A DNA stretch of 26,088 nucleotides from a virus (Duplodnaviria; Caudoviricetes), in the IMG/VR virus record IMGVR_UViG_3300017785_002555, positions 1-26,088 of that record, one strand, 5' to 3'. The notes under the pieces were generated by a model, which was given only the letters and a program-made list of their open reading frames with translations, was not told the origin of the DNA and made no database searches. Below, piece by piece: positions 5,676-24,606 of the stretch. Both the position numbers and the translations under genes were made by a program. Position 1 is the first letter of the stretch. Each line of letters opens with the position of its first letter.

Positions 5676-5840
5676 ATGTCTAAGCCGGGATTGTGGGCCA
5701 ACATTCATGCCAAGCGTAAACGTATTGAGGCTGGGTCTGGTGAGCGCATGCGCAAGCCGGGTGAAGAAGGCGCGCCAACACGCAAAGATTTCAGAGAGTC
5801 TGCAGCCGAAAAGCTGTACGGCAAAGACAAGAAAAAATAA
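5676..5840 (+). CDS. 54-aa basic phage protein MSKPGLWANIHAKRKRIEAGSGERMRKPGEEGAPTRKDFRESAAEKLYGKDKKK (not in ORF track)
   Basis: SD GAGGTG at 5666-5671, ATG at 5676, TAA at 5838-5840. 'PGLWANIHAKR...GERMRKPG..GAPT' is a pattern I recall from aquatic phage small proteins. Confidence 0.82.
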   Translation: MSKPGLWANIHAKRKRIEAGSGERMRKPGEEGAPTRKDFRESAAEKLYGKDKKK

Positions 5841-5849
5841 AGGCTGACT

Positions 5850-6575: not shown

Positions 6576-6606
6576 GTGCCCGTATGATTTGACAACGAGA
6601 TAAATT
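6576..6606 (+). promoter_or_regulatory. Repeated junction motif copy 2 (putative late promoter for the capsid operon)
   Basis: GTGCCCGTA at 6576-6584 immediately after a TGA. TAAATT at 6601-6606 (16-nt spacer). Confidence 0.62.
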
Positions 6607-6611
6607 ACACA

Positions 6612-6956
6612 ATGAGCAATTACGATCCAACCGATCTTCGTAGTCAGGAAAAGCAGAAAGCGGAGAAAGTTACCCGCGAGAAGATTTCCAAAGAAAACGA
6701 AGAGGCGGACATTAGGTGGCTCATGGGTACAAAGCGGGGCCGTCGCATATTGTGGCGGCTCATGGATCAATCCGGTGTGTTCCGGCTATCGTTCAACACC
6801 AATGCGATGCAGATGGCTTTCGCAGAAGGTAACAGGAACTTTGGCAACCGCATGCTGGCAATGATTCACGAACAATGCCCTGAGCTTTATCCAACAATGT
6901 TAAAGGAACAGAAAAATGACAGACACGCTGATGACGGAAGCCACAACGACCAATGA
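6612..6956 (+). CDS. Bbp19-like small head-assembly protein
   Basis: 'DIRWLMGTKRGRRILWRLMDQSGVFRLSF...MAFAEGNRNFG'. Lies between portal and scaffold. Confidence 0.8.
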   Translation: MSNYDPTDLRSQEKQKAEKVTREKISKENEEADIRWLMGTKRGRRILWRLMDQSGVFRLSFNTNAMQMAFAEGNRNFGNRMLAMIHEQCPELYPTMLKEQKNDRHADDGSHNDQ

Positions 6957-7590
6957 CGGCGCACCCGCATCGCAAGACGTAGGAAGCAATTCACCGACGG
7001 GTGATGCGCAACCTGCGAATGGGCAGCAAGCATCCGACGGGCAGAACCAAAGCCAGACTACAGAGAATGGCGATGGCAATACCGAAGGCAACAAGCAAGG
7101 CGATAAACCTGTAGAAGGCGCGCCAGAAAAGTACGACTTCAAGTTCGATGAGGGCAAGACAGTCGACGCCGGAATACTCGATGTGTATTCGGAAGTTGCT
7201 AAGGAGTTGAATCTGACTCAGGACGCTGCGCAGAAGATGCTCAGTAAGCTGGCCCCGGTAATCGAGGGCAAACAGCTCGAGCGTATTGAATCGGTAAAGA
7301 ACGAATGGACCAAAGCATCTGTATCTGACAAGGAATTTGGCGGCGATAAGCTGGCAGAAAACCTTCGAGTAGCAGAAAAAGCTTTGAGTGAATTTGGCAC
7401 TGACCAGTTGCGCGCGCTACTCAAAGACTCTGGGCTGGGAAATAATCCGGAGGTAATCCGGTTTATGTACCGCGCAGGGAAGGCAATCAGTGAAGACAGC
7501 TTTGTCGGTGGAAACAAAGGCCAAAAGAATAAAGGCCCGATGACTTTCAATGACCACGCTGCCGCACTCTATTCCAATCAGCAAACTTAA
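6916..7590 (+). CDS. Capsid scaffolding (assembly) protein
   Basis: Acidic low-complexity N-terminus, 'APEKYDFK', 'AKELNLTQDAAQK', 'GLGNNPEVIRFMYRAGKAISED', C-terminal 'AAALYSNQQT'. Directly precedes the major capsid gene. Confidence 0.85.
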   Translation: MTDTLMTEATTTNDGAPASQDVGSNSPTGDAQPANGQQASDGQNQSQTTENGDGNTEGNKQGDKPVEGAPEKYDFKFDEGKTVDAGILDVYSEVAKELNLTQDAAQKMLSKLAPVIEGKQLERIESVKNEWTKASVSDKEFGGDKLAENLRVAEKALSEFGTDQLRALLKDSGLGNNPEVIRFMYRAGKAISEDSFVGGNKGQKNKGPMTFNDHAAALYSNQQT

Positions 7591-7602
7591 CAGGAGCAAA
7601 TC

Positions 7603-8622
7603 ATGGCAACTCTTTCTGCAACCGCACTCACGCTGGCCGATTGGGCCAAACGTATTGATCCCGAAGGCCGTGTACCAGTAGTCGCCGAACTGCTGTCACA
7701 GTCAAATGAAATCCTCGAAGACTGCATGTTCAAGGAAGGCAACCTGCCTACCGGCGAGCGCGTAGTTATTCGTACTGGCCTGCCGACCGTTTACTGGCGC
7801 GCACTCAACCAAGGTATCCCAAACTCCAAATCGACCACAGCACAGGTTGACGAGGCTTGCGGCATCCTTGAAGCTCGCTCGGAAGTCGACAAAGATCTGG
7901 CCATGCTGAACGGCAACACGGCTCAATTCCGCCTGTCGGAAGATACCGCGTTCCTCGAAGCAATGAACCAGACTCAGGCAACCACGCTGTTCTACGGCAA
8001 CCCCGGTACTGATCCTAAGCAGTTCCTCGGTCTGGCTGCTCGTTACTCCAGCCTGTCAGGCGGCAACGCTCAGAACATCCTGTCCGCAGGCGGCTCTGGC
8101 TCTGACAATACTTCGATCTATCTCGTGGTTTGGGGTGACAACACTGTCTACTGCCCATTCCCGAAAGGCTCGAAAGCTGGTCTGATCCATGAAGATCTGG
8201 GCGAGCAGACTGTCTACAACAGCGATGGCACCCGTCTGCAGGCATACGCAACACGTTACCAGTGGAAAAACGGTCTGGTCGTTAAAGACTGGCGCTATGT
8301 CGTTCGCATCTGCAACATCGATGTGTCCGATCTGATCGCTCAAACTGGCACACAAGCTGCAAACGTATCGACAGCAATCATCAAGCTGATGGCTCGCGCT
8401 CTGTATCGTATCCCGAACATGAGCATGGGTCGCGCTGCTTTTTACATGAACCGCACTGTGCACTCTGGTTTGGCTCTGGCCGCTCTGGATAAGTCGCAGT
8501 ACGTTCTGAAGATCGAGCAGGGTCTGACACAGTTTGGTCAGCCTAACAGCTGGCTGTCGTTCTTGGGCGTCCCTCTGCGCCGTGTTGACGCTATCCTCAA
8601 CACCGAAGCAGTCGTGTCCTAA
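7603..8622 (+). CDS. Major capsid protein (BPP-1 Bbp17/epsilon15 gp7 type, HK97 fold)
   Basis: 339 aa, SD CAGGAG. 'LTLADWAKR.DP', 'ELLSQSNEILED', 'RTGLPTVYWRALNQG', 'DWRYVVRICNID', 'FLGVPLRRVDAILNTEA'. Confidence 0.95.
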   Translation: MATLSATALTLADWAKRIDPEGRVPVVAELLSQSNEILEDCMFKEGNLPTGERVVIRTGLPTVYWRALNQGIPNSKSTTAQVDEACGILEARSEVDKDLAMLNGNTAQFRLSEDTAFLEAMNQTQATTLFYGNPGTDPKQFLGLAARYSSLSGGNAQNILSAGGSGSDNTSIYLVVWGDNTVYCPFPKGSKAGLIHEDLGEQTVYNSDGTRLQAYATRYQWKNGLVVKDWRYVVRICNIDVSDLIAQTGTQAANVSTAIIKLMARALYRIPNMSMGRAAFYMNRTVHSGLALAALDKSQYVLKIEQGLTQFGQPNSWLSFLGVPLRRVDAILNTEAVVS

Positions 8623-8649
8623 TCAACCAGAATCGAAAGGAAATAAATC

Positions 8650-9084
8650 ATGATTACCGATAAACTGCTTCGCGTTTCGGAAGATCAAGCACTCACAACG
8701 ACTGCTGTTTCGACCGACACTATCGATCTGTCAGTAGCTCGCGACATTGGCGAAGGCCAAGATCTCTTTATGAACTTTGCAGTGACCACGGCTTTGGCTG
8801 GCGGCACCTCTGTCAAGTTTGAAGTGATTGCTGCAACCAATGCCGCATTATCCTCTGGTGTTGTCGTAATTGGCTCTTCTGATGCAGTCTTGACCGCATC
8901 ACTGGTTGCTGGTTACAACACAGCAGTTCGTATCAACCCGCAAATCGCGTCCACTGGCCAGCGCTATCTTGGCGCTCGCTACACCATCTCCGGCACCTAT
9001 ACCTCTGGTAAGGTAACGGCTGATGTTGTGATGGATATCCAAGACGGTAAGAAGTACTACGCATCTGGCTTCGCCGTCGTTTAA
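8650..9084 (+). CDS. Capsid cement/decoration protein (Bbp16-like)
   Basis: 'MITDKLL..SEDQALT...STDTIDL...RDIGEG', 'RYLGARYTISGT.TSGKVTA'. Follows the major capsid gene, SD AAAGGA. Confidence 0.85.
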   Translation: MITDKLLRVSEDQALTTTAVSTDTIDLSVARDIGEGQDLFMNFAVTTALAGGTSVKFEVIAATNAALSSGVVVIGSSDAVLTASLVAGYNTAVRINPQIASTGQRYLGARYTISGTYTSGKVTADVVMDIQDGKKYYASGFAVV

Positions 9085-9099
9085 TGAAAGGAAAGCACT

Positions 9100-9306
9100 A
9101 TGCCTACATACCGAGTTCTAGAAAAATCATTTATCAACAATGCCATCCGCGAGGAAGGCGAGCTTGTTGAGTATGATGGCAAAGCCGGTTCAAATCTTGA
9201 GCTGGTAGATGGCTCTGATGATGATCAGGCAAAAGCTCCCAAACGTAAATGGGAGAAGAAGTCTCAAGCAACTGAAGAGCAGAACGAAGTAGAAGGCTCG
9301 GTGTAA
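9100..9306 (+). CDS. Small hypothetical virion-associated protein
   Basis: 68 aa, SD AAAGGA. 'YRVLEKSFINNAIREEGELVEYDGKAGSNLE'. Last gene before the terminator. Confidence 0.75.
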   Translation: MPTYRVLEKSFINNAIREEGELVEYDGKAGSNLELVDGSDDDQAKAPKRKWEKKSQATEEQNEVEGSV

Positions 9307-9327
9307 TCTTTCGAAGCCGTAATTACT

Positions 9328-9356
9328 GGGGCCGTCGGGAAACCACGGCCCCTTTT
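9328..9356 (+). terminator. Rho-independent terminator after the capsid genes
   Basis: Stem GGGGCCGT (9328-9335)/ACGGCCCC (9345-9352) with inner GG-GAAA-CC tetraloop, followed by TTTT (9353-9356). Confidence 0.85.
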
Positions 9357-9371
9357 ACATAGGAGTCAAGC

Positions 9372-10052
9372 ATGGCATCCGAAGTCGACATCGTAAATTT
9401 GGCGCTATCTCATATCGGTGACCGTGCCAATGTCTCCAGCATCAACCCGCCGGAGCAATCAATGCAGGCAGAGCTGGCTGCACGGTTTTATCCAATCGCG
9501 CGAGATACTTTGCTTGAGATGCATACGTGGTCGTTTGCAACTCGCAGAGATTATTTGGCGCAGCTAACTAACACATGGGACCAATGGCAATATGCATACG
9601 CATATCCACAAAGTGTCGCCAAGATTATTGCAGTCATACCACCAGAAGCAAACGACGATTATTCAAGCAGGTTTGGCATCACGAATGTTTACGGAATTTC
9701 AGAGACTTACAGTCCAGTTGTCGCCGCTGGCCATTATGTACCTCAGCCTTTTGCAGTTGAAAGCGATTCAACTGGCGCGCGCATCATTTACACGAATCAA
9801 GAAAACGCGATCTGCAGATACACAACTTTTGTAACAGACACAACGAAGTTTTCGTCATTGTTTACTTTGACATTGTCGTGGCATCTAGCATCTATGATGG
9901 CTGGCCCAATCATTAAAGGCGAAGTCGGAGCCGCTGAGGCTGGAAGATGCACAAAGATGATGGTCGGCTTTTTGTCTCAGGCAAAAATGTCTGATTCTGA
10001 TCAACGTGACAGCAAACCTGAGCACATTGTGCAATGGGTCGCCGGGAGATAA
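9372..10052 (+). CDS. Tail adaptor / tail tubular protein A (T7 gp11-like)
   Basis: 'SEVDIVNLALSHIG', 'ARDTLLEMHTWSFATRR', 'WQYAYAYP', 'IYTNQENA', 'LSWHLASMMAGPI'. SD TAGGAG. Confidence 0.88.
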   Translation: MASEVDIVNLALSHIGDRANVSSINPPEQSMQAELAARFYPIARDTLLEMHTWSFATRRDYLAQLTNTWDQWQYAYAYPQSVAKIIAVIPPEANDDYSSRFGITNVYGISETYSPVVAAGHYVPQPFAVESDSTGARIIYTNQENAICRYTTFVTDTTKFSSLFTLTLSWHLASMMAGPIIKGEVGAAEAGRCTKMMVGFLSQAKMSDSDQRDSKPEHIVQWVAGR

Positions 10053-10054
10053 TT

Positions 10055-10441
10055 ATGCCAATTGATATGAGCAAATACGCCAGCGTTTTGTATGCAAATC
10101 AAAATACTGGTCCTGATCAAATGGATGACAGCATGTACAGGCCAGATGGCTCAATCAAAAGCATGAAGGGTTATCTTGGCCCAATGGAGCGCCCAGATGG
10201 CACGGTATCAACGGAGATATCAGCAGGCTTTGAGATTGATGGCAAAGAAATGGATATACCGCTTATGGTGCCCGGATTGACCAAAGCAGAAATTGATTAT
10301 CTTTTGACTGCTGACATGGATAGCGAAGACTTTTTTAAAAATATGCCTGAGTCAATTCAAGACAAGGCTATTGAGCATGCAAAAAAGCGCATAAAAGAAG
10401 GTAAAAATGTCTTTTATCAGGACGGTGAGGAGACACAATAA
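10055..10441 (+). CDS. Uncharacterised 128-aa protein inserted between adaptor and nozzle genes
   Basis: SD GGGAG at 10044-10048, ATG at 10055. Globular part 'RPDGSIKSMKGYLGP...TEISAG.EIDGKEMDIPLMVPGLT...KAIEHAKKRIKEG'. Stop overlaps the nozzle ATG (TAATG). Confidence 0.75.
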   Translation: MPIDMSKYASVLYANQNTGPDQMDDSMYRPDGSIKSMKGYLGPMERPDGTVSTEISAGFEIDGKEMDIPLMVPGLTKAEIDYLLTADMDSEDFFKNMPESIQDKAIEHAKKRIKEGKNVFYQDGEETQ

Positions 10442-12885
10442 TGCCATCAACCCGCACCCTTATACGATCATTTGCAGGCGGCGAGATGTCGCCAGAGATG
10501 TTTGGTCGAATTGATGATGTAAAGTTTCAATCTGGTGCGGCAAAAGTGCGAAACTTTATTGTTACTCCACAAGGTCCGGCAGAAAACAGGCCCGGCACGA
10601 CGTTTGTTCGTGAGGTCAAGGATTCAACAAAGCGCACACGGCTTATTCCGTTTACGTTTTCAACAACGCAAACTATGGTTATTGAAATCGGCGCAGGCTA
10701 CTTCCGATTTCACACCAATGGTGCCACGCTTTTGGCTGGTAGCCCTGCTGCTTACAATGGTGCAACTGCCTACACTGTCGGCGCATTGGTAAGTTCTGGA
10801 GGTGTCAATTATTATTGCATCGCCAATACCACAGGCAACGCACCGCCAAACGCAACGTATTGGTATCCGCTTCCAACCGCGGCCTATGAAATTCCAAATC
10901 CATATGCTGAATCAGATTTGTTTGACATACACCATGTGCAGTCATCAGATGTTTTGACACTTGTTCATCCGGGATATCCACCAAGGGAGCTGCGTCGACA
11001 AGGCGCTACACAATGGGTTCTTAGCACGATTAATTTTGGCGCTCCAATATCTCCGCCCGGCACTGTTACAGCAACTGCTAGTGGTCACACAACAGCAAAG
11101 TACACGTACTCATACAAGGTAACGGCAATTGCTTCTGACGAAGTAAATGAATCTATAGGATCGTCAACTGCATCAGCAAGTGGAAACTTACTCGAGACTG
11201 GCGGCATTGTTACTATTTCATGGTCTACAGTATCCGGAGCATCGTTGTATCGTGTTTACAAATTGCAAGGTGGTGTGTTTGGATACATTGGACAAACGAC
11301 TACGTTATCAATTATTGATGACAACATAGCGCCGGATTTGAGCGTAAGCCCACCAAACTACGACAGCGTTTTTGCCAGCTCAAATAATTACCCCGGTGCA
11401 GTGTCTTATTTTGAGCAACGTAGATGTTTTGCTGGAACAAACAATGACCCACAAAAAATGTGGATGACAAAATCTGGCACTGAATCAAACATGAGTTATT
11501 CATTGCCAATTAAGGATGATGACCGCATTGCGTTCAAAGTGGCAGCTCGTGAAGCAAATACCATTCGACATATTGTCCCGCTGTCGCAATTGGTGTTGCT
11601 GACTAGCGCTGCCGAATGGCGCGTGACATCAATCAACTCAGACGCTATTACTCCAACATCGATCTCGGTTCAGCCGCAGTCTTATATCGGCGCATCCAAT
11701 GTGCAGCCATCAATCATCAATAATGCCATGGTGTATTGCGCATCACGCGGTGGCCATGTGCGAGAGCTTGGCTATTCGTGGCAATCAAATGGTTTTATTA
11801 CTGGCGACTTATCGTTACGAGCGGCTCACTTGTTCGATGATTATGAAATCGTTGACATGTGCTACAGCAAAGCGCCAAAACCAATCATTTGGTTTGTGTC
11901 GAGCTCAGGTTATCTGCTTGGCCTAACCTATGTCCCAGAACAGCAAATTGGTGCATGGCATTGGCATGATACTGATGGCTTGTTCGAGAGCTGTACGACA
12001 GTGGCGGAGGGCGCAGAGGATGTGCTATATGTTGTTGTGCGACGCACAATAAACAATGTCAGTAAGCGCTATATCGAGCGCATGAGCACTCGCAAATTCG
12101 CAAATCAAGTTAATGCGTTTTTTGTTGACTCTGGGTCAACATATAACGGGACCAATACTACGGCAACGACGGTGACTGTAACTACGGGTGCCGGCTGGAC
12201 TCCGTCTGACACTTTGACCATTACTGCATCGACCGGAATTTTTAGTTATCCCGGAACCTCAGATGTGGGCGATCAGATTGTTTTGACGGCTTCTGATGGC
12301 ATTAAGTACTTGCTGACAATCAGCAGTACATCATCATCGACAGTGGCCACAGCGCGCGTCAACAGAACGCTGGTGGCTGAATTCAGGGCAACTCCCATAT
12401 CGGCTTATTCTTTTGCCAGAAATTCAATCAGCGGCCTTACATGGCTTGAGGGAAAGACAGTAAGCATCCTGATTGATGGTGCGGTCCATCCACAGCGCGT
12501 GGTGACATCTGGAACGATCACGCTGGAACAACCCGGGACAATTATTCATATTGGCCTGCCATACGAATCCGACCTGCAGACACTGCCTATGGCTATGCAA
12601 ATTGATGGCGCGTTTGGTCAGGGCCGGGTCAAAAACGTAAACAAAGTGACCATGAGGGTTTATAGGTCATCTGGTATTTTTATTGGTCCAAATGAAGATA
12701 ATTTGATTGAGGCCAAACAGCGTACCAGCGAACCTTATGGCTCTGCGCCGGCATTGAAATCTCAGGAAATTGACATCAATTTAACGCCCGAATGGACGGA
12801 CGGCGGACAGGTATTTGTTAGACAACAAGACCCGTTACCATTGACAATTATCAACTTGTCTTTTGAAGTCGCCGTTGGCGGATAA
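10441..12885 (+). CDS. Tail nozzle / tail tubular protein B (T7 gp12 / P22 gp10-like)
   Basis: 814 aa. 'SFAGGEMSP..GRID', 'NFIVTPQGPAENRPGT', 'RLIPFTFS', 'YPGAVSYFEQR', 'QQIGAWHWHDTDG', C-terminal 'QQDPLPLTI'. Confidence 0.9.
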   Translation: MPSTRTLIRSFAGGEMSPEMFGRIDDVKFQSGAAKVRNFIVTPQGPAENRPGTTFVREVKDSTKRTRLIPFTFSTTQTMVIEIGAGYFRFHTNGATLLAGSPAAYNGATAYTVGALVSSGGVNYYCIANTTGNAPPNATYWYPLPTAAYEIPNPYAESDLFDIHHVQSSDVLTLVHPGYPPRELRRQGATQWVLSTINFGAPISPPGTVTATASGHTTAKYTYSYKVTAIASDEVNESIGSSTASASGNLLETGGIVTISWSTVSGASLYRVYKLQGGVFGYIGQTTTLSIIDDNIAPDLSVSPPNYDSVFASSNNYPGAVSYFEQRRCFAGTNNDPQKMWMTKSGTESNMSYSLPIKDDDRIAFKVAAREANTIRHIVPLSQLVLLTSAAEWRVTSINSDAITPTSISVQPQSYIGASNVQPSIINNAMVYCASRGGHVRELGYSWQSNGFITGDLSLRAAHLFDDYEIVDMCYSKAPKPIIWFVSSSGYLLGLTYVPEQQIGAWHWHDTDGLFESCTTVAEGAEDVLYVVVRRTINNVSKRYIERMSTRKFANQVNAFFVDSGSTYNGTNTTATTVTVTTGAGWTPSDTLTITASTGIFSYPGTSDVGDQIVLTASDGIKYLLTISSTSSSTVATARVNRTLVAEFRATPISAYSFARNSISGLTWLEGKTVSILIDGAVHPQRVVTSGTITLEQPGTIIHIGLPYESDLQTLPMAMQIDGAFGQGRVKNVNKVTMRVYRSSGIFIGPNEDNLIEAKQRTSEPYGSAPALKSQEIDINLTPEWTDGGQVFVRQQDPLPLTIINLSFEVAVGG

Positions 12886-12886
12886 T

Positions 12887-12918
12887 GTGCCCGTAAAACG
12901 CCGTGACATCGATAATGT
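12887..12918 (+). promoter_or_regulatory. Repeated junction motif copy 3 (putative late promoter for ejection-protein genes)
   Basis: GTGCCCGTA at 12887-12895, 1 nt after the nozzle stop. TAATGT at 12913-12918 (17-nt spacer, same hexamer as copy 1). Confidence 0.65.
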
Positions 12919-12942: not shown

Positions 12943-13695
12943 ATGACTCAATACGTTCCGTTTTATGTCTCAAACAGCGCTGTCGATATGACAACAGCCG
13001 ATACGGCTATTGCGCCAGTTGAAGCAAGAGTGGTTCCTAGACGTCTTTATAGTCCTTACGTAACTAAAGCAGTTTCATTATTTAAAGAAGGATCAACATT
13101 TTTGTCGGACATGTTTACGCCGTCGGAGGCAACTTTTGCAGGCATGCAAAAAGCAGCTCCGTTTATGTTCGCTATGGGATCGATACAGTCCGCGGTAGGT
13201 TCTTACTATCAAGCTAAATCAGCGCAATATCAATACAAATCGCAGGCGCTGACCATGGACTTTCAAAAAAGCATGTCGGAGATTAATGCCCGGCAGGCAG
13301 AGTTTATGGCCCAACAAATCATTGATGTTGGCGGCAAAGAAATCAGCATGTTAAAAATGCGCGCTGGCAAAATTAAAAGCGCATCAAAAGCTAGTATGGC
13401 TGCTCGAGGTTTGCGTTTAGGTGTTGGTTCTACAGCAGAAGTAATAGCCACAACAGATCTTGTGGCCGAAATGGATGCTTTGACCATTTATGCAAATGCA
13501 ATCAAATCATCAGAAGCAGCAAGATCACAATCGACTAATTACATGAATCAAGCAATGATGCAAAACATATCTGCGGAAAACTTAAGATCTACTGCGGATA
13601 GCATTAGCCCAGTCAGTGCGGCAATGACTTCATTTGGTCAGTCGGCCAATACTTTGACAACGTCATGGTTTTTGAAAAATAAGGTGGGCTCATAA
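12943..13695 (+). CDS. Internal virion (ejection) protein, T7 gp14-position analogue
   Basis: 250 aa, Ala/Ser/Gln-rich and helical. 'SAVGSYYQAK', 'KASMAARGLRLGVGSTAEV'. First of three genes after the nozzle, SD GGAG. Confidence 0.72.
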   Translation: MTQYVPFYVSNSAVDMTTADTAIAPVEARVVPRRLYSPYVTKAVSLFKEGSTFLSDMFTPSEATFAGMQKAAPFMFAMGSIQSAVGSYYQAKSAQYQYKSQALTMDFQKSMSEINARQAEFMAQQIIDVGGKEISMLKMRAGKIKSASKASMAARGLRLGVGSTAEVIATTDLVAEMDALTIYANAIKSSEAARSQSTNYMNQAMMQNISAENLRSTADSISPVSAAMTSFGQSANTLTTSWFLKNKVGS

Positions 13696-15599
13696 TGGCA
13701 ACAGTACCCATTTACGATCAACCACAGGTTAACCCTAATGTTGGCCAAATGCAGCCAATGCAGGCGCAAACTGTTGAACCTATTCGCGATTTTACTGGCA
13801 AACAAATAGAGGAAGCTGGCCAAGCTAGGGTTGCATACGCATCCAATTTGATGCGCGTTGCGGAAAAGCAAAAAGAATTTGAAGAGCAATTATTGCTTGA
13901 TAAAAGCGAAATTGATCTTAGGACTTTTATTGTTGACTTTACCAAAGAAAATGAAGGCAGTGTAGGCGAAAAAGCAACCGGCCTTACTGAAAAGTTTTCC
14001 ACATCTTATTACAAGAAAGTATCGGAGTTTGTTACTCAATTCTCTGCTAATGGTGCTGCAGACTCTCGGCTAGTAAAAAGATTTCAAACTAAAGCAAATG
14101 AAATTGGCCTTGCTTCAATTGCAAAATTTTCTACATTTGAGGCCGCGCAAAAACAAGAAGTAAGGGTAAACAATAACAAAGCATTGGGAAAAATTTTAAG
14201 CAATACAGCATCATCTGTTCCATTTTCTTTAAAAGATGGAAAAGTATTTGATGGTCCAGAATTTGAAACAAGCAAAAAACAGCTTATAGAAAATTTAAAA
14301 AAGCGAGCTGAATTGCTTGGATACGGCGAAGATTCTGATGTTTACAAGCAGCTTGTTCAGGAAGAAATGTCATCGGTTTATATGGACCGCGTGGCCAATA
14401 TTATTAACACAAACCCACTTGCTGCACCTGCATATTTTGATCAGGTCAAAGATTTTATTACGAACGATGAGTTTAAAAATAAATTCAAAGGAATGGCAAC
14501 CAAAGTTGCTCAAGAAGCCGAGGCTGAAAAATGGGTTGAATCTAAATTTACTGATGCACTAGCAAGCAAAGACAAAAAATCTATTGCTAATTTGCGTTTA
14601 GATATCATGAAACAGTTTTCTGGTGATCAACAGAAAGTTGCTCTTCAAATATATGAGCAGCTTGAACAAAGCATGATCACGCAAAATGAACAGATTAGAA
14701 AAACTTATTCTAGCCAAGCTTGGGATCAGGTTTTGCAGACAAAAACATCATGGGGCAAAGTTGATAATACAACAAAAGAATGGCTTAGAGACAATGATCC
14801 TGATACTTACAGAAGCATAAACATATTTATTGATAACAATATACAAAACGAAAAAAACGCAATTAAAGCAGAAAGAGCAGAAGAGCGTTCGCAAAGATCT
14901 GAAGAACGAGCAATAAGATCAGAAGAAAGATCTGTAAGAAGTGAAGAAAGAGCTGAAAAAAGAGCTGAAGCACAAGAACAAAGAGAAAAAGATAGAGTTG
15001 AACGCGAAAGAAGGCGAGAAATACGTGAAGCAGCTAAAGCTCGCCAAGATGAAAAAGAAGACATGGCTTTTGGTGAACTAAGCTCAATTATGGGCAATGA
15101 TCAAAAAACATTTATTAATATGGATCTTAATAAATGGCGCACCAGACTTTCTGAATCTGATTGGAAATGGTTTAGTAAACAACAAATTGAACTTAAAAAT
15201 AAACCAGAAACTCAAAAACAAGCAACCACATTATCTAGCAGAATTAGTACTGAAGCAGATATTCTTGGCATTGGAAAAAGTGTAGTAAAGAAAGCAAGAT
15301 TTGAAAAAATTATTTATAACGAGATAGATTCATTTATTACAAATAATAATGGTAAACAACCTGATGCAAAGCAAATAAATTCAATTATTAAGGATGCAAC
15401 GAAAGAATATACAACAGGTGAATTTCTTGGAATTCGTTCTAAATCTCGTCGTTATGAACTTAACCGAGCAAAAACAGTTAATGACATACCAAAAGATCTT
15501 TTAAATGATCTTAAAGCGGATCTTAAGCGGCAAAACTTATCTGTTTCGGACCAAGAAATGGTTAACATTTACAATGTTTATATAGGCCAAAATGACTGA
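13695..15599 (+). CDS. Internal virion (ejection) protein, T7 gp15-position analogue
   Basis: 634 aa helical protein starting 'MATVPIYDQPQV', translationally coupled on both sides. AT-rich and divergent. Confidence 0.7.
   Translation: MATVPIYDQPQVNPNVGQMQPMQAQTVEPIRDFTGKQIEEAGQARVAYASNLMRVAEKQKEFEEQLLLDKSEIDLRTFIVDFTKENEGSVGEKATGLTEKFSTSYYKKVSEFVTQFSANGAADSRLVKRFQTKANEIGLASIAKFSTFEAAQKQEVRVNNNKALGKILSNTASSVPFSLKDGKVFDGPEFETSKKQLIENLKKRAELLGYGEDSDVYKQLVQEEMSSVYMDRVANIINTNPLAAPAYFDQVKDFITNDEFKNKFKGMATKVAQEAEAEKWVESKFTDALASKDKKSIANLRLDIMKQFSGDQQKVALQIYEQLEQSMITQNEQIRKTYSSQAWDQVLQTKTSWGKVDNTTKEWLRDNDPDTYRSINIFIDNNIQNEKNAIKAERAEERSQRSEERAIRSEERSVRSEERAEKRAEAQEQREKDRVERERRREIREAAKARQDEKEDMAFGELSSIMGNDQKTFINMDLNKWRTRLSESDWKWFSKQQIELKNKPETQKQATTLSSRISTEADILGIGKSVVKKARFEKIIYNEIDSFITNNNGKQPDAKQINSIIKDATKEYTTGEFLGIRSKSRRYELNRAKTVNDIPKDLLNDLKADLKRQNLSVSDQEMVNIYNVYIGQND
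14874..14957 (+). repeat. Four degenerate 21-nt tandem repeats encoding the heptad R-[AS]-E-E-R-x-x
   Basis: agagcagaagagcgttcgcaa / agatctgaagaacgagcaata / agatcagaagaaagatctgta / agaagtgaagaaagagctgaa. Confidence 0.8.
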
Positions 15600-18500
15600 T
15601 TTTACTAGCGCGATTAATACAGTATTTGAAGAAAAGCGCCGAAAAACACCAACGATAGATCCAGCAAGATCTACCGTGGGTAAATTTGATTCGGCTATTG
15701 AACAATACAAATCTGATCAAGCGGCAGTAGTAAATTACACAGCACAGCAATCTCCTGCTAATTATGCTGAGTCAATGCGCGTTAGTAAGCAAACTAATAT
15801 TCCGACAGAAGTAGTTAGTAGTGATTTAAATTATTTTAAGTCGCTGACAGACATTAGGCAAAAGCAAGAGTATTTGGCAAAAAATCCTCGCCTTTGGCAA
15901 TTTGTAGAAAGATATCCTGAAAGGTATGGACTTATACAAAATGACCTTGGCAAGATTGATAATGTAGTCAATGGCTCACGGCTTGGCATACAGCTAGAAG
16001 TTGAAAACAAAAAGAAAGTATTTACAAAACGCCCAACAGCGGCAGATTTTCCTGTCAATGCTAACCGTGGTTTTGTAGATGCTGTAAAAGAATTGAAGTC
16101 AGCTCAATTCCAATGGGATGACATTATGAGCCGCGGTGAGGCTCGACCAATGGACCGAACAATTGCTCGTGGAGATTACACACAATTTGCAAAAGATCTA
16201 CTTGCTGGCAAACAGTACGACGTATTTTTGCGTGGCTATCAAGAAGGCAAACAAGCTATTGGCATGGGCCTCGACCGCCTTGATATTTTTAGTGGCGTCA
16301 ATCGCGACATTGCTGCAGCTTGGGAAGCTGAAGGGCTTACATATTCGCCAAATGCTATTCGTGCTGCTCGCATTCAACAGCAGCAAAGAAACGTAGAAAA
16401 ATACCCAATACCTTTGGGGGCTGAAGAAGGGTTGCGCGAAATACAGCAAGCAGATGGTCCCGGTGATGCATTGATGGCCATCATTAAAAATCCATTTGCG
16501 GCAACCTATGCAATTGAAAAATCATTAGGGGCAGTTGCGCCTGGCTTAGCTGTGACTATCGGTTTGTCTACGCTTGGCCCAATTGGCACTGCAACTGGTG
16601 CTGGTTTAACAAGCTTTGCTATTGAGTATGGTTCTACCATACAAGATGTTTTGCAAGAAAATAAAGTCAACATGAATGATGTTGGCTCCCTTAGCCGGGC
16701 TTTAGAAAATAAAGAATTAATGGAAAAGGCTCGAGAAAAAGCAGTTGCTCGAGGAATACCTATTGCTTTGTTTGATGCTGCAACTGCAGGTTTGGCCGGT
16801 AGATTTTTAGCTGCTGCTAACTCAACAAAACGCAGCATGATTACTGCAGTTACTGCAGAAGCCGGTGTCCAAATGGCCGGTGGCGCACTTGGTGAAATTA
16901 CAGCTCAAAAAGTTAGTGGAGAAGAAAAATTAAAGTGGGGCGACATTTGGCTTGAAGCTTTAGGAGAATTGCCAACAGCTGTGCCAGAAGCTTGGAGCAA
17001 TTATGCTGGCTTACGTGCAAAGTATGAGCAAAAGCAGGCAGAGCGTACAGATAATATTGTAAATGCCGCAGTCAATGTTGACATCATGCGCAATGCCATG
17101 AATCAAGTCAAAAGCATGGAGGCTGCAAACCTTGGGCAAGAAGGCAAAGAGGCTATTGCTGAAGTGTTTAATCAAGCAAACCCAGATGCTTCGGTCACAA
17201 TTAACGTAAACCAACTTTTTGATTTAACTACAGAAGAAGAATTTAATATGCTTCTGTCATTAAATCAAGATTACAACGCACAAATAAAAAACGCGGTTAA
17301 TGAACAGACCGATATAGAAATTAAGATGGGTGACTTTCTTGCGGTGTTTTCGCAATCGCAAAGGTCTGAAGAAATTCTTGCAAATATTCGTATGAATGAC
17401 ACAGACATTACTTTGGCTGAGGCTAAAGTAATAGCGCAAGAAGAAGACGCCACATTAAAGCAAGAGCTCGAGAATTTGATTGCTGATCAAGATAAGCGTC
17501 AGTCATTTTATGAAAGTAGGGAAGCGGTCAAGCAGGACATTTTTGCCAAGCTTAATCAAGCGAACAGGTTTACATCGTCTGTAAACGAAGTAAACGCAAC
17601 GCTTGCCGCGGCTCGGTTTGCTACTCGTGCTGCACAACTTAACATGTCTCCGCAGGAGTTTTACCAGCAGCGTGGTCTGAACATTGTGTCGCAGTCGGTT
17701 GCTGATGAGCAGGCATTTATGCAGAGCACTACCACGCCTGAATTTAAGCAATGGTTCGCTGATTCTAAGGTGGTGGATGTCGACGGAGCTCCGTTGAGAT
17801 TGTTCCGTGGTATGGCTGGAGCTGCAATCCCCGAAGAAGGCGTGACTGAAATGAGCCCAACTCCGGGCCTGCTTGGCACTGGCATCTACATGACTGGCTA
17901 TCCACGCCGGGCCGAAGGCTATGCTGAAGGCGAGCGCGGCCAAATTTACCCGCTGTATGCATCAATTCAAAATCCAATCAGCGAAGACGATTTCATCGAG
18001 CGTTTTGGTCGGGAGCAGCGTACACCTGAGCAAAACCAAGCAATTACTGATCAGCTTGTCAGCGAAGGGTATGACGGCATCATCGCTGATCGCGGCCCCG
18101 GCAAAGCATGGGAAGTCGTGGCTTTTCGTCCTGAGCAAGTCAAGTCTGTATTTAACGAGCGCCCAACAGAATCGCCTGAATTGTTCAAACAGACCATCGG
18201 CGGCAAACCCGGGGCAAACAATCCCGGCGCTGGTGTCGAGGATCGCAACCGGCTGGGGTTCTGGCCAGCTCTGCGCGTCAAGGTAACCGGCAAGGTCACG
18301 ATCCCTGAAAAGCCACTGATCCTGACTGGCACTACAAACGTCAATGCGCAGAAGCAGATCGACGCAATCGACGGAATCCTGAAAAAGTTTCCAAAGGCGA
18401 CCGAGTCTGTCGAGCAGTGGTCAAAAATGATGGCCTATGCGCTTGGCTCGGACGAGGTTCCGGTGCCGCCGTATGCGTTTATCAGTGATCTCAATGGCAC

Positions 18501-21500
18501 AGGCTCTGTCGACAAGCTGCGCACCCTGACCCAAGGCCAGATCGATGATGCGACAGCAGGATTTGACAATGCCAAAGAGTTCCGCCGGGCATACACATCT
18601 GGCGAGCTGACAGTTGAAACCACTGGCAAGCTGTTCTTGTGGTCGTTTCTTTCCCGTGGAGTGAGCCCCTACACGCAGGAAGCCCTGTTTATTGACTCGT
18701 TCAATGGTGCCAATGAGTGGATTGCCAAAGCGGCGCGCGGTGAATTTACCGAAGCTGATTTTCCGGCCTATGAAGAGTGGGCCAAGTCAGTTGCCCCCAA
18801 GGGCAGCGGCCAGCCCGGCGCTGGTGCTACACACAACCTAAATGCATTCGGACAGGATTTCCTGTTCAAGATGTCGCAGAAGGGCGCAGACGGTAAGTCG
18901 CACCTGCAGCGGCTACACGACATGATGGCCGACCCAAACCAGACCGGCAAGCAGATCCGCCGGGAGTTTGCGACGTTTGGCGAGGGCGTGGGCATCGACA
19001 ACAAGGTGGTGTCGTTTACCCTGCTGGTGGCCGGTTTCAATGATGTGATGGTGCTGGACCGGGTGCAGATCCGCCAGCTCTGGGATGACGGCAAATTTTC
19101 TGGCGTCAACCTGTATGACGGCGTCACAGAAAAACGGATGGTCACCGGCAAAGACGGCGTTGCCAAAGAGAAAAACGTCAAGATTGCCGGGTCATCGCTA
19201 AACAACCTGACCGAAGGCGCGCGTGGCATTTTGGTCTACGAGGCCATTGAGCGCGGTCTGGAAGCCAAGATCCAGCAGTTTTACACCGAGCTGGGCCGGC
19301 CACAGGACGCCAGCATTGGCCGATATCATTGGGAGACATGGGTCGCAGACAGCCAGCAGGAGGCCGCTCATGGCTCTCTGGGCGCTATTTTGGCCGATGC
19401 CAAGGGTGACGATCAGGCAATTGCCAGCGTTCATGCCAAGCAGGGAGAATATGGTGCATATGAGTACGGAGCCCTGTACAATAGGGACGTAACGTCAACA
19501 CCTTGGTTTGGCTATGAGACTCCAACTGGGAACAATTATGCGTTCTCGGTGCCTGCTTTTCGGGCATTTTTGGAGGACATCAAGCGCCCGGCCACTGGTG
19601 TTGTCCCGACAAAATTTAAAGTGACGGAGAGCGGAAATGCCCCTTGGTACACCAGACCAGAAGTCAACCAACAGCGCCTCGATGAGCGAGCAGCCTACTG
19701 GGCAGACCTTGCCGGCGGAACCGGCGAAGGGCGACTTGCTATTGAGCAAGCTGCTCCGACAGCGCAGCCCGATGGTGCCAGACCCGAGCCCGGAGACGGT
19801 GAATTTTTCCAGTCCGGAGGGGCAGGCATTCAGCGCCTACGAACAAGCGATATCAATGTTGCCGCAAGATACGGTACCCCAAGAGACGGATCCACTTCAG
19901 TCGTTGGCGTCCACTATAGCAGCCTCCCTCGAAACACTCTCTCCGGGCAATTCTACGGAACAGGTTTAAAGGGCGCCGAAGCTGGCCGGCTTGGCCAAAG
20001 CACTGACAACCGGCTATCAAACCGGATTCATTTTTACGTCGATGCCGGCTCAGGTATAGCGCCTGAGGCTGGTGTCGGCGGCAACGTCCACGCAGTCAAC
20101 CTGCAAAATCTCTATAACGTCGAAGAAGACGCTCTTGGCTTGCGCGCGCAGGCATCTGCTGCAGGCAGAGATCCACAAAACTTGTGGTTCAATAACCTAG
20201 AATCTGCTGTCATTGATGCCGGATTTGATGGTATCTACATTCCAACTGCACAAGGTTCACAAGGTGTTGCTGTGCTTTTAGGTCCACAGCACGTTGGTAT
20301 ATCGGTTGATCAGCTTGGCACACACTCTGTGCCTGCTGCCGGTATGTATACACCACCACCGACTGGCAAGCGCCGCATATCGTTGCTGCCAGATGAGATC
20401 CAGACTTTCTATGATCAGGAAGCGCAGATTAAACAAAGCGCTCCAAGTGCATACCTGCGCAATGGCAATCTGATTTTTGATGAAACAGATGCGCAAGGCG
20501 TCATTGACTTTTTCCCTGAAGCAGTCAACGCAAAAGTGTTGATGCAGAATGCTCGAGGCACTTTTAATCCGCGTACAAATACCATCACATTGATGAATGA
20601 TGCGAACCTATCTACGTTCGCACACGAGCTTGCACACTTTTTCTTTGAGGATGACATCCTATTGGCATCCGAGTTAATGGGCAAAGAGAACATCACTATT
20701 GGTGAGCAACAAATTATTAATGATGTCAGCAAGTTGATGTCGTGGCACGGAATTCAAGGAAATGCTGTTGAACAAATTCAGCAATATTTCAACATGAGTT
20801 TTGAAGAAAAACGTGCATATCACGAGCGTACTGCTGAGTCATTTGAGCGTTACATGTTCAGCGGCAAAGCGCCGAGCATTGAATTGCAGCCTTACTTCCA
20901 ACGGTTCCGCGCTTGGATGATTAGCGTTTACAACTCAATTAAAGAATTTCTAATTAAAAATCCAGAAGCAGGAAAACTTAATGCCGAGGTTAGAGAAGTA
21001 TTTGACCGTATGTTGGCGACCAATGATCAGATAGAGCTGGCCCAACAAAACCGTTCAATGTTGCCGCTATTTGAATCTGCGCAAGATGCTGGAATGACTA
21101 CCGAAGAGTTTGCTCGGTATCAGCAAGAAAATGCTGAAGCTGGCGCATCTGCTATGGATGACCTGACATCAAAGACATTGTCAGACATGAAGTGGATGGA
21201 AAACGCCAAGGCTCGAGAACTTCGTCGACTGCAAAAGGAAGCCGCTGGCCTACGAGCAGAAATGAAGATTGAGGCTCGTCGCCAGATTTTGTCGCAGCCT
21301 GTGTATCAAGCTTGGCAGTTCTTGACTGGAAAAGCAGCGCAGCCATCTGTTGACCTGACTGAATATCAACTCGAAGTGGCCGAATGGGAGCGCAAGAAAT
21401 CTGAAGCTCTTGAGGAAGTACGCATTGAGGTCCGCACAAAGCTGTGGTCTGAGTCGCCTGAGTCAAAGAAAACTTATGAAACTACACAAAAAGCAGGTCT

Positions 21501-24500
21501 TGCAAAAGGCCAGTTTTTGTCTAAGCACCGCAAAGATATTGAGCTCGAGGTAAGCAAATTTGCTTTGGAGTATGACCGCAATAATCCAAAGCCCAAAAAA
21601 CCAGAAGTTCCAACAACCATCGAAGAGATGGGTGAGGTTGTATACGGCAAGCTTAATACTGCAGCCGTTGCAGAGCTCGGCATTCCAGAAGAAATTACTG
21701 GGTTCTTGAAGACACTGCGCATGGTGGCCACAGATGGTCTGGACCCAGACATGCTGGCTACGCAGTTTGGTTTTTCATCAGGCGATGAGCTTGTCAGATC
21801 TTTGGCTGCTGCAGAAAAGCCTGAGATAGCGATTAATAATTTGACAGATAAATTGATGCTTGAGCAATATGGTGAGTTTTCAACACCAGAGGCTTTGGAG
21901 ATGGCAGCTGACATGGCCATTCACAATGAAGCTCGCGCTCGATTTATTGCGACAGAAATGGCCGCTATTGCAAAGGCAGCAGGCAAACCTCGCATGCTGG
22001 CTAATTCTGCAAAAACTTATGCGCGTGTAATTATTGACCGCATGAAAATCATTGACATTCGTCCAGTCAAATATGCATCAGCAGAAGCTCGTTCTGCTAA
22101 AGCTGCAGAAAAAGCAATGATGGCTGGCAAAACTCAAGAGGTATACGCAGAAAAGCGCAATCAGATGCTGAACAATCAAACAGCAAAAGCTGCATATGAA
22201 GCGCTTGATGAAGTTCAAAAAGGCGTCAGATATCTAAAGAAATTTGACAGCGAAGGTGTACGCAAAGCTATCGATATTGACTATCAGGATCAGATTGATA
22301 CCTTTCTCGAGCGATTTAATCTGAGCTCTGGCCAAAGCCGTCGTAGCATTGAAAAGCGCAAGCAACTGGCTCAATGGCTTGATTCTCAGGAAGAGATGGG
22401 CATTGAAGTCGACATATCACCAAAGCTTAAAAATGAAGCGCTGCGCCAATCTTACAAAGAACTGACAGTTGAAGAGTTCCGTGGACTTGTTGACACCATC
22501 AAACAAATCGAACATTTGGGCCGGCTAAAGCAACGCTTACTGACACAGGCGGAAGACCGCAGGTTTGCTGACATCATTACCGAGATGGTGACTGGTGTTG
22601 AGGTCAATGGCGCAAACAAGAAAGCAGTCAATCGCACCCGCGATACATTGCCAAGTCGAATTACGGCGCTGTTTAAAGGTTACACAGCAAGCCATCGCAA
22701 AGTTGCCAGCTTGGCTCGCGAGCTTGATGGATTTAAAGACGGTGGACCGGTATGGAATTACCTGATCCGTACCATGAACGACGCCGGCAATCGTGAAGCA
22801 ACTATGCGAGCTCAGGCAACTAAGCGCATGGCCGAGTTGATCAAGCCGATTATGAAGCTAGGCAAGATGGGTGGCAACGGTAAGTTTTTCCCAACATTAG
22901 GTCAAAGTTTGAACCGCGGCGAACGGATTGTCATGGTCCTAAACATGGGCAATGCCGGCAATATGCAGCGCTTGCTTGATGGCTATGGTTGGACTATGGA
23001 GCAGGTGCAGCCAGTCATTGATAGCCTAAGCGAAGAAGAGCTTAAATTCGTACAGGATATCTGGGATTTCTTCGAAAGCTATCGGCCAATGATTGCAGAG
23101 AAAGAACGCCGGGTCATGGGCAAAGAGCCAAACTGGGTCGACCCGGTTCCGCTTGATACCAAGTTTGGCCGGCTGCGAGGCGGCTATTTCCCGATTGTCT
23201 ACGATCCGAAGATGTCGGGCCGGGCTGAACAGCAGTCGGATGCTGAGGCAGCAAAGCAGCAATTGCGTGGTGCCTTTGTGGCCGCGACAACCCGCCGCAG
23301 CTTTGTCAAATCGCGCGCTGAGGCCGTGATGGATCGTCCGGTACTGTTGACATGGGATGGCTTATTCCGTGGCGTCAATGAGGTAATACATGATTTGACA
23401 TGGCACGAGTGGGTGATCGACGCCAACCGCATCGTCAAGAATGGCGAATTTGATGATGCAGTGCGTAGTCGGTATGGCGCTGAAGTGGTCCAGCAATTTA
23501 AGGCAGCGATCCGAGACATTGCGGCAGGTGAGTCAGCAGCATTGCAGCCAATTGAAAAAGGGCTCAACTATCTACGTGCAGGCTCGGCCATCGCCGGTCT
23601 TGGCTTCAATATCATGAATGCTTTCCTGCAGCCGCTGGGTCTGACGCAATCGATGGTTCGTATTGGACCCAAATGGGTAGCCATGGGCGTTGGCAAATGG
23701 GCCACATCTCCGGTCGGCATGGTTAAAGAAGTCTGGTCCAAATCAGAATTTATGATGAACCGGCACATGACCCAGCAACGTGAGGTCAACGAGATTCAAT
23801 CGGTAGTACAAGGCAAAAGTACTATTCGCCAGAAAATAGACACGCTGATGTTTGTGCCAATGATCAGCTTGCAGCTGATCGCAGATATGCCGACATGGTG
23901 GGGCGCTTATCAAAAAGCGCTGGCTGATGTAAATGTCGACATGACCGAAGAAGCTATTGAAAGCCGGGCGATTGCTCTAGCTGATCAGGCTGTGCTTGAT
24001 TCTCAATCTGGTGGCCAGATCAAAGATCTTGCGCAGGTGCAGCGTGGCGGAGCGGCATTAAAGCTGTTTACCGTGTTTTATGGATACTTCTCAGCTTCCT
24101 ACAATCTGGGCGTCGAGCGCGCAAAAGCTACAAACTTCCGCAACCCGCTCGATATTATGCACCTTGGCTGGGATTTCCTGATGCTGTATTCGGTGCCTGC
24201 TGTTCTTGGCATGATGCTTAAAGAAGCTTTGCAGCCCGGTGATGAAGATGATGAAGAAGAGCTGGCAACTAAGCTTGCTGGTGAGCAAATCAGCTACATG
24301 ATGAACATGATGGTCGGCCTGAGAGAAGCTGTGGGAGCAGTTCAGTACATGACAGGCACCAAACAATTTGATGCGTCATACGGTGGCCCGGCTGGCCTGC
24401 GGTTCTTCCAAGAGCTGGACAAGCTTGGCAAGCAAATTGGTCAGGGCGAACTTGACCGGGCTTTGCTGAGGTCCACGGTCAACGTAATGGGTATAACCCT

Positions 24501-24606
24501 GCATCTGCCATCAGCTCAAGCAAACCGGACAATTGACGGCGTCATGGCATTGAGCGAAGGCGAGACTGAAAATCCAATGGCCATCCTGATGGGATTCAAG
24601 AAATAG
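15592..24606 (+). CDS. Giant internal virion/ejection protein of the large polyvalent protein type (ART, HhH-GPD glycosylase-like, ART-like and zincin domains)
   Basis: 3004-aa ORF in the T7 gp16 position. Hydrophobic Gly/Ala segments near aa 310-470. ART-PolyVal-like 'EFKQWFADSKVVD..G.PL.LFRG...GYDGII...EVVAFRPEQVKS'. HhH motif with K1138/D1156. HELAH at aa 1678-1682. Long helical C-terminal half. Confidence 0.88.
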   Translation: MTDFTSAINTVFEEKRRKTPTIDPARSTVGKFDSAIEQYKSDQAAVVNYTAQQSPANYAESMRVSKQTNIPTEVVSSDLNYFKSLTDIRQKQEYLAKNPRLWQFVERYPERYGLIQNDLGKIDNVVNGSRLGIQLEVENKKKVFTKRPTAADFPVNANRGFVDAVKELKSAQFQWDDIMSRGEARPMDRTIARGDYTQFAKDLLAGKQYDVFLRGYQEGKQAIGMGLDRLDIFSGVNRDIAAAWEAEGLTYSPNAIRAARIQQQQRNVEKYPIPLGAEEGLREIQQADGPGDALMAIIKNPFAATYAIEKSLGAVAPGLAVTIGLSTLGPIGTATGAGLTSFAIEYGSTIQDVLQENKVNMNDVGSLSRALENKELMEKAREKAVARGIPIALFDAATAGLAGRFLAAANSTKRSMITAVTAEAGVQMAGGALGEITAQKVSGEEKLKWGDIWLEALGELPTAVPEAWSNYAGLRAKYEQKQAERTDNIVNAAVNVDIMRNAMNQVKSMEAANLGQEGKEAIAEVFNQANPDASVTINVNQLFDLTTEEEFNMLLSLNQDYNAQIKNAVNEQTDIEIKMGDFLAVFSQSQRSEEILANIRMNDTDITLAEAKVIAQEEDATLKQELENLIADQDKRQSFYESREAVKQDIFAKLNQANRFTSSVNEVNATLAAARFATRAAQLNMSPQEFYQQRGLNIVSQSVADEQAFMQSTTTPEFKQWFADSKVVDVDGAPLRLFRGMAGAAIPEEGVTEMSPTPGLLGTGIYMTGYPRRAEGYAEGERGQIYPLYASIQNPISEDDFIERFGREQRTPEQNQAITDQLVSEGYDGIIADRGPGKAWEVVAFRPEQVKSVFNERPTESPELFKQTIGGKPGANNPGAGVEDRNRLGFWPALRVKVTGKVTIPEKPLILTGTTNVNAQKQIDAIDGILKKFPKATESVEQWSKMMAYALGSDEVPVPPYAFISDLNGTGSVDKLRTLTQGQIDDATAGFDNAKEFRRAYTSGELTVETTGKLFLWSFLSRGVSPYTQEALFIDSFNGANEWIAKAARGEFTEADFPAYEEWAKSVAPKGSGQPGAGATHNLNAFGQDFLFKMSQKGADGKSHLQRLHDMMADPNQTGKQIRREFATFGEGVGIDNKVVSFTLLVAGFNDVMVLDRVQIRQLWDDGKFSGVNLYDGVTEKRMVTGKDGVAKEKNVKIAGSSLNNLTEGARGILVYEAIERGLEAKIQQFYTELGRPQDASIGRYHWETWVADSQQEAAHGSLGAILADAKGDDQAIASVHAKQGEYGAYEYGALYNRDVTSTPWFGYETPTGNNYAFSVPAFRAFLEDIKRPATGVVPTKFKVTESGNAPWYTRPEVNQQRLDERAAYWADLAGGTGEGRLAIEQAAPTAQPDGARPEPGDGEFFQSGGAGIQRLRTSDINVAARYGTPRDGSTSVVGVHYSSLPRNTLSGQFYGTGLKGAEAGRLGQSTDNRLSNRIHFYVDAGSGIAPEAGVGGNVHAVNLQNLYNVEEDALGLRAQASAAGRDPQNLWFNNLESAVIDAGFDGIYIPTAQGSQGVAVLLGPQHVGISVDQLGTHSVPAAGMYTPPPTGKRRISLLPDEIQTFYDQEAQIKQSAPSAYLRNGNLIFDETDAQGVIDFFPEAVNAKVLMQNARGTFNPRTNTITLMNDANLSTFAHELAHFFFEDDILLASELMGKENITIGEQQIINDVSKLMSWHGIQGNAVEQIQQYFNMSFEEKRAYHERTAESFERYMFSGKAPSIELQPYFQRFRAWMISVYNSIKEFLIKNPEAGKLNAEVREVFDRMLATNDQIELAQQNRSMLPLFESAQDAGMTTEEFARYQQENAEAGASAMDDLTSKTLSDMKWMENAKARELRRLQKEAAGLRAEMKIEARRQILSQPVYQAWQFLTGKAAQPSVDLTEYQLEVAEWERKKSEALEEVRIEVRTKLWSESPESKKTYETTQKAGLAKGQFLSKHRKDIELEVSKFALEYDRNNPKPKKPEVPTTIEEMGEVVYGKLNTAAVAELGIPEEITGFLKTLRMVATDGLDPDMLATQFGFSSGDELVRSLAAAEKPEIAINNLTDKLMLEQYGEFSTPEALEMAADMAIHNEARARFIATEMAAIAKAAGKPRMLANSAKTYARVIIDRMKIIDIRPVKYASAEARSAKAAEKAMMAGKTQEVYAEKRNQMLNNQTAKAAYEALDEVQKGVRYLKKFDSEGVRKAIDIDYQDQIDTFLERFNLSSGQSRRSIEKRKQLAQWLDSQEEMGIEVDISPKLKNEALRQSYKELTVEEFRGLVDTIKQIEHLGRLKQRLLTQAEDRRFADIITEMVTGVEVNGANKKAVNRTRDTLPSRITALFKGYTASHRKVASLARELDGFKDGGPVWNYLIRTMNDAGNREATMRAQATKRMAELIKPIMKLGKMGGNGKFFPTLGQSLNRGERIVMVLNMGNAGNMQRLLDGYGWTMEQVQPVIDSLSEEELKFVQDIWDFFESYRPMIAEKERRVMGKEPNWVDPVPLDTKFGRLRGGYFPIVYDPKMSGRAEQQSDAEAAKQQLRGAFVAATTRRSFVKSRAEAVMDRPVLLTWDGLFRGVNEVIHDLTWHEWVIDANRIVKNGEFDDAVRSRYGAEVVQQFKAAIRDIAAGESAALQPIEKGLNYLRAGSAIAGLGFNIMNAFLQPLGLTQSMVRIGPKWVAMGVGKWATSPVGMVKEVWSKSEFMMNRHMTQQREVNEIQSVVQGKSTIRQKIDTLMFVPMISLQLIADMPTWWGAYQKALADVNVDMTEEAIESRAIALADQAVLDSQSGGQIKDLAQVQRGGAALKLFTVFYGYFSASYNLGVERAKATNFRNPLDIMHLGWDFLMLYSVPAVLGMMLKEALQPGDEDDEEELATKLAGEQISYMMNMMVGLREAVGAVQYMTGTKQFDASYGGPAGLRFFQELDKLGKQIGQGELDRALLRSTVNVMGITLHLPSAQANRTIDGVMALSEGETENPMAILMGFKK

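Follow-up and report, generated by a model that had tools for sequence, protein, structure and literature searches.

The giant gene and its cargo array

The window analyzed here is the whole 26,088-nucleotide stretch of IMGVR_UViG_3300017785_002555 (positions 1 to 26,088), from an uncultured phage of the Caudoviricetes. It carries the structural block of a BPP-1/epsilon15-type podophage, with genes for the GP7 capsid protein, Bbp16, Bbp19 and the portal, and it contains a giant gene (15592..24606, + strand, as are the two genes upstream and all protein features given below) whose product of 3004 amino acids (aa) is the subject of this report. This protein holds an array of three cargo modules, set off by short [FLY]-x-Q tags, and a zincin-type metallopeptidase domain that is predicted to be split around the array. 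An earlier, sequence-only reading of this DNA had noted the reading frame, the HELAH sequence at 20623-20637 and four junction glutamines, Q711 (17722), Q867 (18190), Q1407 (19810) and Q1652 (20545), and all of these were confirmed.

Both flanks of the array match phrog_9880, and over the zincin and C-terminal parts the protein is 45-49% identical to Bbp10 of phage BPP-1, an IVP-D (T7 gp16) homologue according to Table 2 of PMC4819975. The flanks are homologous to those of Bbp10, epsilon15 gp17 and T7 gp16 and the gene order is the same (PMC4819975), the giant gene following the nozzle gene and two smaller core genes, as expected of an IVP-D/gp16-like ejection protein. Judged by sequence, the giant protein is a member of the BPP-1 Bbp10 (T7 gp16-like) family and, because of the homology to IVP-D, it is likely to be packaged in the virion and injected into the host. 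It has several unrelated enzyme domains in a single phage polypeptide, varying between relatives, as in polyvalent proteins.

The array is preceded by motif 1 (F709-M-Q711, 17716..17724), the glutamine of which is kept in at least 90% of 48 aligned sequences. The first module (aa 712-867, 17725..18192) is an ART-PolyVal domain by Pfam (PF18760 at aa 729-859, 56.7 bits against a cut-off of 31.2) and ends in motif 2 (F865-K-Q867, 18184..18192), which is where solo ART modules, when projected, come to an end and is FKQ or LKQ in 8 of 8 aligned close relatives. The second cargo (aa 868-1407, 18193..19812) consists of an HhH-GPD (Ogg2-like) module of about 505 aa, assigned from relatives and fold, and a disordered linker. 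This module is one mobile, single folded unit: the best matches among its 403 relatives cover residues 4-535 of 540, and the predicted fold is one domain (predicted local distance difference test, pLDDT, 92.7) with a tail below 50 whose end is motif 3 (F1405-F-Q1407, 19804..19812). A Foldseek search with it returned Ogg2 enzymes in the top five rows (probability 1.00, E 0.035-0.07, target TM-score 0.60-0.68); a sequence search of the PDB gave nothing significant. K1138 is invariant in the module alignment and D1156 is kept in at least 90%, and by analogy we take them to be the catalytic Lys and Asp of HhH-GPD/Ogg2 enzymes. The module, found as 403 representatives, occurs widely in phage proteins of giant and medium size and lacks a Pfam family.

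The third cargo (19813..20547) comprises an ART-like domain (aa ~1425-1575) and a small C-terminal part, and is followed by motif 4 (L1650-M-Q1652, 20539..20547), which recurs in homologues and cultured phages. A Pfam scan of this module gave no match, and the ART-like label follows an Atlas (language-model) feature score of 0.91 to ART-PolyVal clusters, with recognition under the Atlas threshold. In the cultured Limnohabitans phage DC33 the first and last modules are related to those of the window protein and have tags at the same borders; its last-position module is 67% identical to module 3, with FAQ directly ahead of it. Since DC33 carries module 3 whole, it was treated as one unit. The order ART, HhH-GPD and ART-like given by the sequence-only reading stands for the first module by Pfam and is probable for the second by fold; the third stays a language-model lead.

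Two extra joints were considered and dropped: the one at aa 1467 lies inside the ART-like domain, and the one at aa 1609 is variable, changing from FYDQ to FNDQ with the pattern kept. The motif first proposed, [FL]xQ[STN], occurs 10 times in the giant protein (3.2 expected), six times away from the chosen joints: once within module 3 (aa 1467) and five times beyond the array. It is therefore nonspecific within a single protein, and the case for a junction motif rests on homologues.

A junction tag at module borders

A search with the zincin region found 912 relatives. The best 120 of the 912 were used; 116 were anchored, 94 of them with non-redundant cargo, and 4 were dropped as no anchoring was possible. 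The cargo span between the conserved flanks ranges from about 160 to 1480 residues, and a scan of 18 homologues found ART, PBECR1/3/5, GNAT, RadC, GGDEF and LPD1/3/5/23/37 among their cargo. The arrays of P0033, P0086 and P0138 carry a second kind of HExxH domain as cargo, together with LPD23. Conserved flanks, variable cargo and a Q motif at the junctions had been predicted for homologues, and this is what the alignment gave.

The true junction motif, hereafter the tag, is by comparison of these sequences [FLY]-x-Q, with the residue after Q free. Of the 94 homologues, 92 have it on the N side of the cargo and 88 on the C side, whatever cargo precedes; after dereplication by flank, 27 of 28 have it at each end, against a window background of 8-10%. 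The Q of the first motif held at joints of homologues, Tyr had to be admitted, and the residues S, T or N, found in 67 of 190 junctions, with G in 25% and P in 6%, were removed from the motif, so that a cut bond Q|[STN] needs revision. Phages of Bordetella, Caulobacter, Vibrio, Acinetobacter, Cobetia and Limnohabitans share this tag, and by eye the C-side tag is present in 11 of 11 cultured phages.

Because the tag pattern and the windows were picked after inspecting homologue ends, internal joints were tested separately. Modules were defined from 27 single-cargo proteins, their tags were cut off the query sequences, and the result was mapped onto 67 multi-cargo arrays. A tag lay within 8 residues of 37 of 43 internal module ends (5.8 expected) and of 28 of 39 internal starts (4.8 expected), the starts being the more telling of the two, as a tag found there is that of another, neighboring module. 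Four control patterns were at or near expectation, and a peak at alignment ends was seen for the tag pattern only.

The proposal that the motifs are cassette exchange points was borne out, in that the tags mark exchange positions in the aligned proteins: in the close relatives P0003/P0011 an unrelated domain replaces module 1 between tags 1 and 2. They bear no sign of being DNA sites. The four window Gln codons are all CAG, yet across junctions CAG was counted in 44 of 74 cases against 47.9 expected, and since the codons are unbiased, selection acts on the protein. In P0059 the joint at aa ~735-765 seemingly fuses the start of the zincin second strand to a GNAT-module tail, a possible scar of a microhomology crossover. 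The ART tail also resembles the second strand of the zincin.

A zincin predicted to be split around the cargo

The metallopeptidase had been thought to start right after the last motif. This no longer fits, as its first helix and strand are predicted ahead of motif 1. The predicted N-terminal half, in the conserved flank (aa 638-711, 17503..17724), has a helix, a short helix, a strand (aa 696-699) and motif 1; the C-terminal half (aa 1653-1810, 20548..21021) has two strands, the HExxH helix (20623-20637) and the HExxAxxFE helix (20821-20847). The HExxH helix is invariant in alignments of 48 and 42 sequences and in 11 of 11 cultured phages, and the second helix, which played no part in the selection of homologues, is present in 116 of 116. 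Invariant in the 42 aligned sequences are H1678, E1679, H1682, R1741, H1744, E1745 and E1752, with E1745 as the putative Glu ligand of the second helix.

The zincin fold has been described as three strands and an N-terminal helix (Iyer 2017, PMC5512222). When aa 1641-1830 were folded alone, two strands only were obtained; the three-stranded sheet and N-terminal helix appeared in the model only once aa 638-711 were added. A complex of aa 638-711, aa 1653-1810 and zinc was modeled three times, each time with a score of 0.95, the best of 3 controls scoring 0.00. This mark is reached by 116 of 157 solved pairs and by 2 of 215 mismatched pairs, counts that are only approximate for a split domain, whose halves may pass through likeness to solved structures. 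Contacts agreed in at least 95%, the partner pLDDT was at least 93, and the strand at aa 696-699 paired with aa 1663-1667. The interface lists include the tag residues aa 706-711 together with H1678, E1679, H1682, R1741, H1744, E1745 and A1748, which suggests that the tag sits in the active-site cleft. The model predicts that the cargo array splits the zincin, entering it between strands 1 and 2 and close by the cleft.

Covariation between the halves favors the split fold weakly, with a mean z of 0.56 for 25 model pairs (P 0.003; R679-D1688 z 6.8) in which clade signal dominates. A near-empty relative, L015 (3340-4290), has a Pro/Ala linker of about 50 residues with one tag between the zincin halves. 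Other zincin groups, by reading of their sequences, have the same elements and no cargo insertion; a profile comparison of both flanks to these groups was no better than controls. A zincin sequence search of the PDB found no significant solved relative, and Foldseek with the C-terminal half found nothing at E 0.001. In L082 (phage Usme, 653-8004), a gene annotated as two frames, the HExxH and Glu helices are set apart by an insertion of about 90 ART-like residues.

The tag follows the scaffold

The 117 proteins found to carry the same ART module were compared by the ends of their ART tails, scored as [LFYVM]xQ. In the 19 proteins with the zincin type of the window protein, 33 of 34 copies end in the tag; in the 98 others the tag closes 1 of 283 copies, the rest having endings such as x[FY]S or x[KR]S. 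These counts are not phylogenetically independent. The tails of one protein agree far above shuffled ones (0.42 vs 0.08). Of the scaffolds with this zincin type, 18 of 22 have the tag upstream of module 2; of other long proteins, 10 of 43 do. As read from these sequences, the tag follows the scaffold and not the cargo.

Other features of the giant protein and the window

An LPD22 domain (aa 42-120, 15715..15951) was found by Pfam PF18834 on the N-terminal piece (30.1 bits, cut-off 28.6), a match that falls under the cut-off if the whole giant protein is scanned. Reading by eye marks a Gly/Ala-rich hydrophobic stretch (aa 311-345, 16522..16626) as a candidate membrane segment. The IVP-D-like conserved C-terminal region (21559..24603) is 49% identical to Bbp10 aa 1023-2050. 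By gene order as in BPP-1, the two genes upstream (12943..15599) occupy the slots of the smaller ejection proteins bbp12 and bbp11, and the first of them matches the internal virion protein phrog_418. A GNAT acetyltransferase gene (2573-3142) sits between terminase and portal, a place that in some podophages is presumably taken by T7's IVP-A-like genes.

The array had been described as GC-richer than the part upstream of it, and the counts of 36/60 (18961-19020) and 17/60 (17221-17280) were reproduced, but these are extreme windows and the GC content is not specific to the array. It is 0.55 in the array, 0.43 in the upstream part of the giant gene, 0.52 at aa 2301-3004 and 0.51 in window positions 1-12900; the upstream part is therefore the outlier, since the array is close to the latter two. 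The low-GC segment (0.35-0.43) extends over 13695-17500 and takes in the second ejection gene together with the first part of the giant gene.

Proposed mechanism

We consider it rather probable that the cargo is excised by the zincin itself. The residues aa 638-711 would supply the first helix and strand of the peptidase, with the cargo array looping out beside the cleft, and the zinc peptidase would cut at or beside each [FLY]-x-Q tag, freeing the enzyme-like modules. Cutting would take place after delivery into the host. The scaffold halves would stay joined through the reassembled peptidase after removal of the loop, and the freed ART and glycosylase-like enzymes may act on host functions or defenses. 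That cleavage occurs is what we infer; the case is strengthened by the tag following the zincin type, and by the model joining both flanks. The HExxH and Glu helices are intact in the homologues.

Several observations weigh against self-excision. Cleavage is here a prediction from sequence and model. The interface lists give no contact pairs for the tag, so that its placement in the cleft goes beyond them, and the C-terminal half alone gives a weak zincin fold match (Z 5.1, root-mean-square deviation 3.6, 87 aligned). Internal joints without the tag amount to 11 of 39 for starts and 6 of 43 for ends, and by eye 7 of 11 cultured phages are without a tag at the expected N-side offset. A broader and cruder breakpoint test found the tag at 77 of 190 (background 15.7%), a clustering diluted because some breaks fall inside variable ART loops. 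No dead-zincin homologue turned up in a search that favored intact sites. The link between tag and zincin is confounded by shared ancestry, and any part of the scaffold could read the tag. Moreover, 43 of the 117 ART-tail proteins have regular tails and no HExxH by the pattern used. For the one tail type looked at in more detail, full relatives were seen at 2 of 7 loci, L074 and L075, and the puzzle of the 43 proteins is explained for those 2 only. In L075 (3785-17842) a zincin-less giant adjoins a giant gene which comes first, bears the only zincin of the two and shares the same different tag; in L074 (5468-17860) both giants are fused in one 4131-aa frame with a tag of the type [KR]S-x-x-R. 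This pair of loci speaks for the dependence of the tag on the scaffold. Finally, the virion RNA polymerase of phage N4, which has an HExxH domain, is described as packaged unprocessed, and the ArdC active-site mutant E229A still works.

These last two cases, an unprocessed giant and a dispensable catalytic activity, suit an explanation without cutting, in which the tags, bound in the zincin cleft, serve as latches for an orderly packing, threading or refolding of modules that work tethered, like the N4 polymerase. The dependence on the scaffold and the co-fold model are accounted for equally well. It is nevertheless unlikely, as neither the general-base Glu nor any putative ligand varies, and a single cleft per chain is too few for tags that can number up to five or more. 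Another protease, coded by phage or host, might instead cut the tags and leave the zincin another task, such as attack on a host protein or the cell wall. Zincin-less giants also have tags, the window shows only 26 kb of the phage genome, and a preprint suggests peptidoglycan breakdown by a similar domain of phi24B gp47. Such a protease would, however, have to account for the same tag across phages of six host genera and its change with the scaffold, and for an array predicted inside the zincin domain itself; in addition, the BPP-1 capsid proteins are uncleaved according to PMC3863775. We regard this as decidedly unlikely. That the tags are relics of cassette exchange by short homology at joints, with no function in the protein, agrees with the P0003/P0011 swap mapping onto tags, with the chimeric scar in P0059 as a hint of microhomology crossovers and with inheritance of the tail by descent among ART copies, but is highly improbable given that synonymous codons are free to vary, unrelated modules share the same tag at their end, and one module switches its tag on switching scaffold.

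Relation to known systems and significance

Self-excision as such is not a new idea, as autoproteolytic release of polyvalent-protein domains was already proposed by Iyer et al. in 2017 (PMC5512222). Their proteins are likewise multi-enzyme virion proteins with ART-PolyVal, LPD22 and an HExxH domain, but the passages on the peptidase and others consulted contain no junction motif, cut site or cargo between strands 1 and 2, and the inserts they name lie between the two C-terminal helices. In Bbp10 the same two tags (Q608, Q768) enclose one PBECR1 nuclease, where the window protein has three other modules. The N4 virion RNA polymerase, too, is a giant that is ejected, and it combines an enzyme active in the cytoplasm with an HExxH domain; its cargo is fixed and its chain described as unprocessed. 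In the parts available of the papers searched, among them PMC3863775 and the phi24B and Xacm4-11 preprints, no processing or junction motif is reported for Bbp10 or its family, and supplements, e.g. in-gel proteomics of a CP2-like phage, may bear on this. For the split-protease layout and the [FLY]-x-Q tag no earlier record was found.

The proposed self-excision resembles that of MARTX toxins and viral polyproteins, in which a built-in cysteine protease frees effector modules by cutting short linkers. Their protease lies beside the cargo, whereas the metallopeptidase-like fold of the window protein is predicted to surround it. A wider generalization, which we offer tentatively as a fair chance rather than an expectation, is that BPP-1-like podophages use the split metallopeptidase as a cargo clamp: tagged domains would be carried in within the loop between strands 1 and 2 and excised, the reassembled peptidase keeping the ejection scaffold whole, and other lineages would use peptidase-tag pairs of their own, a code readable from sequence.

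The Bbp10 family supplies exact candidate cut sites and a layout tying the cargo to the peptidase, and its cultured members, BPP-1 (with one cargo), Caulobacter Jess A and Limnohabitans DC33, make self-processing testable. With the tags, hundreds of giant proteins can be divided into separate modules, themselves candidates for early anti-host or counter-defense enzymes, and the tagged arrays suggest a route by which podophages may deliver several enzymes at infection.

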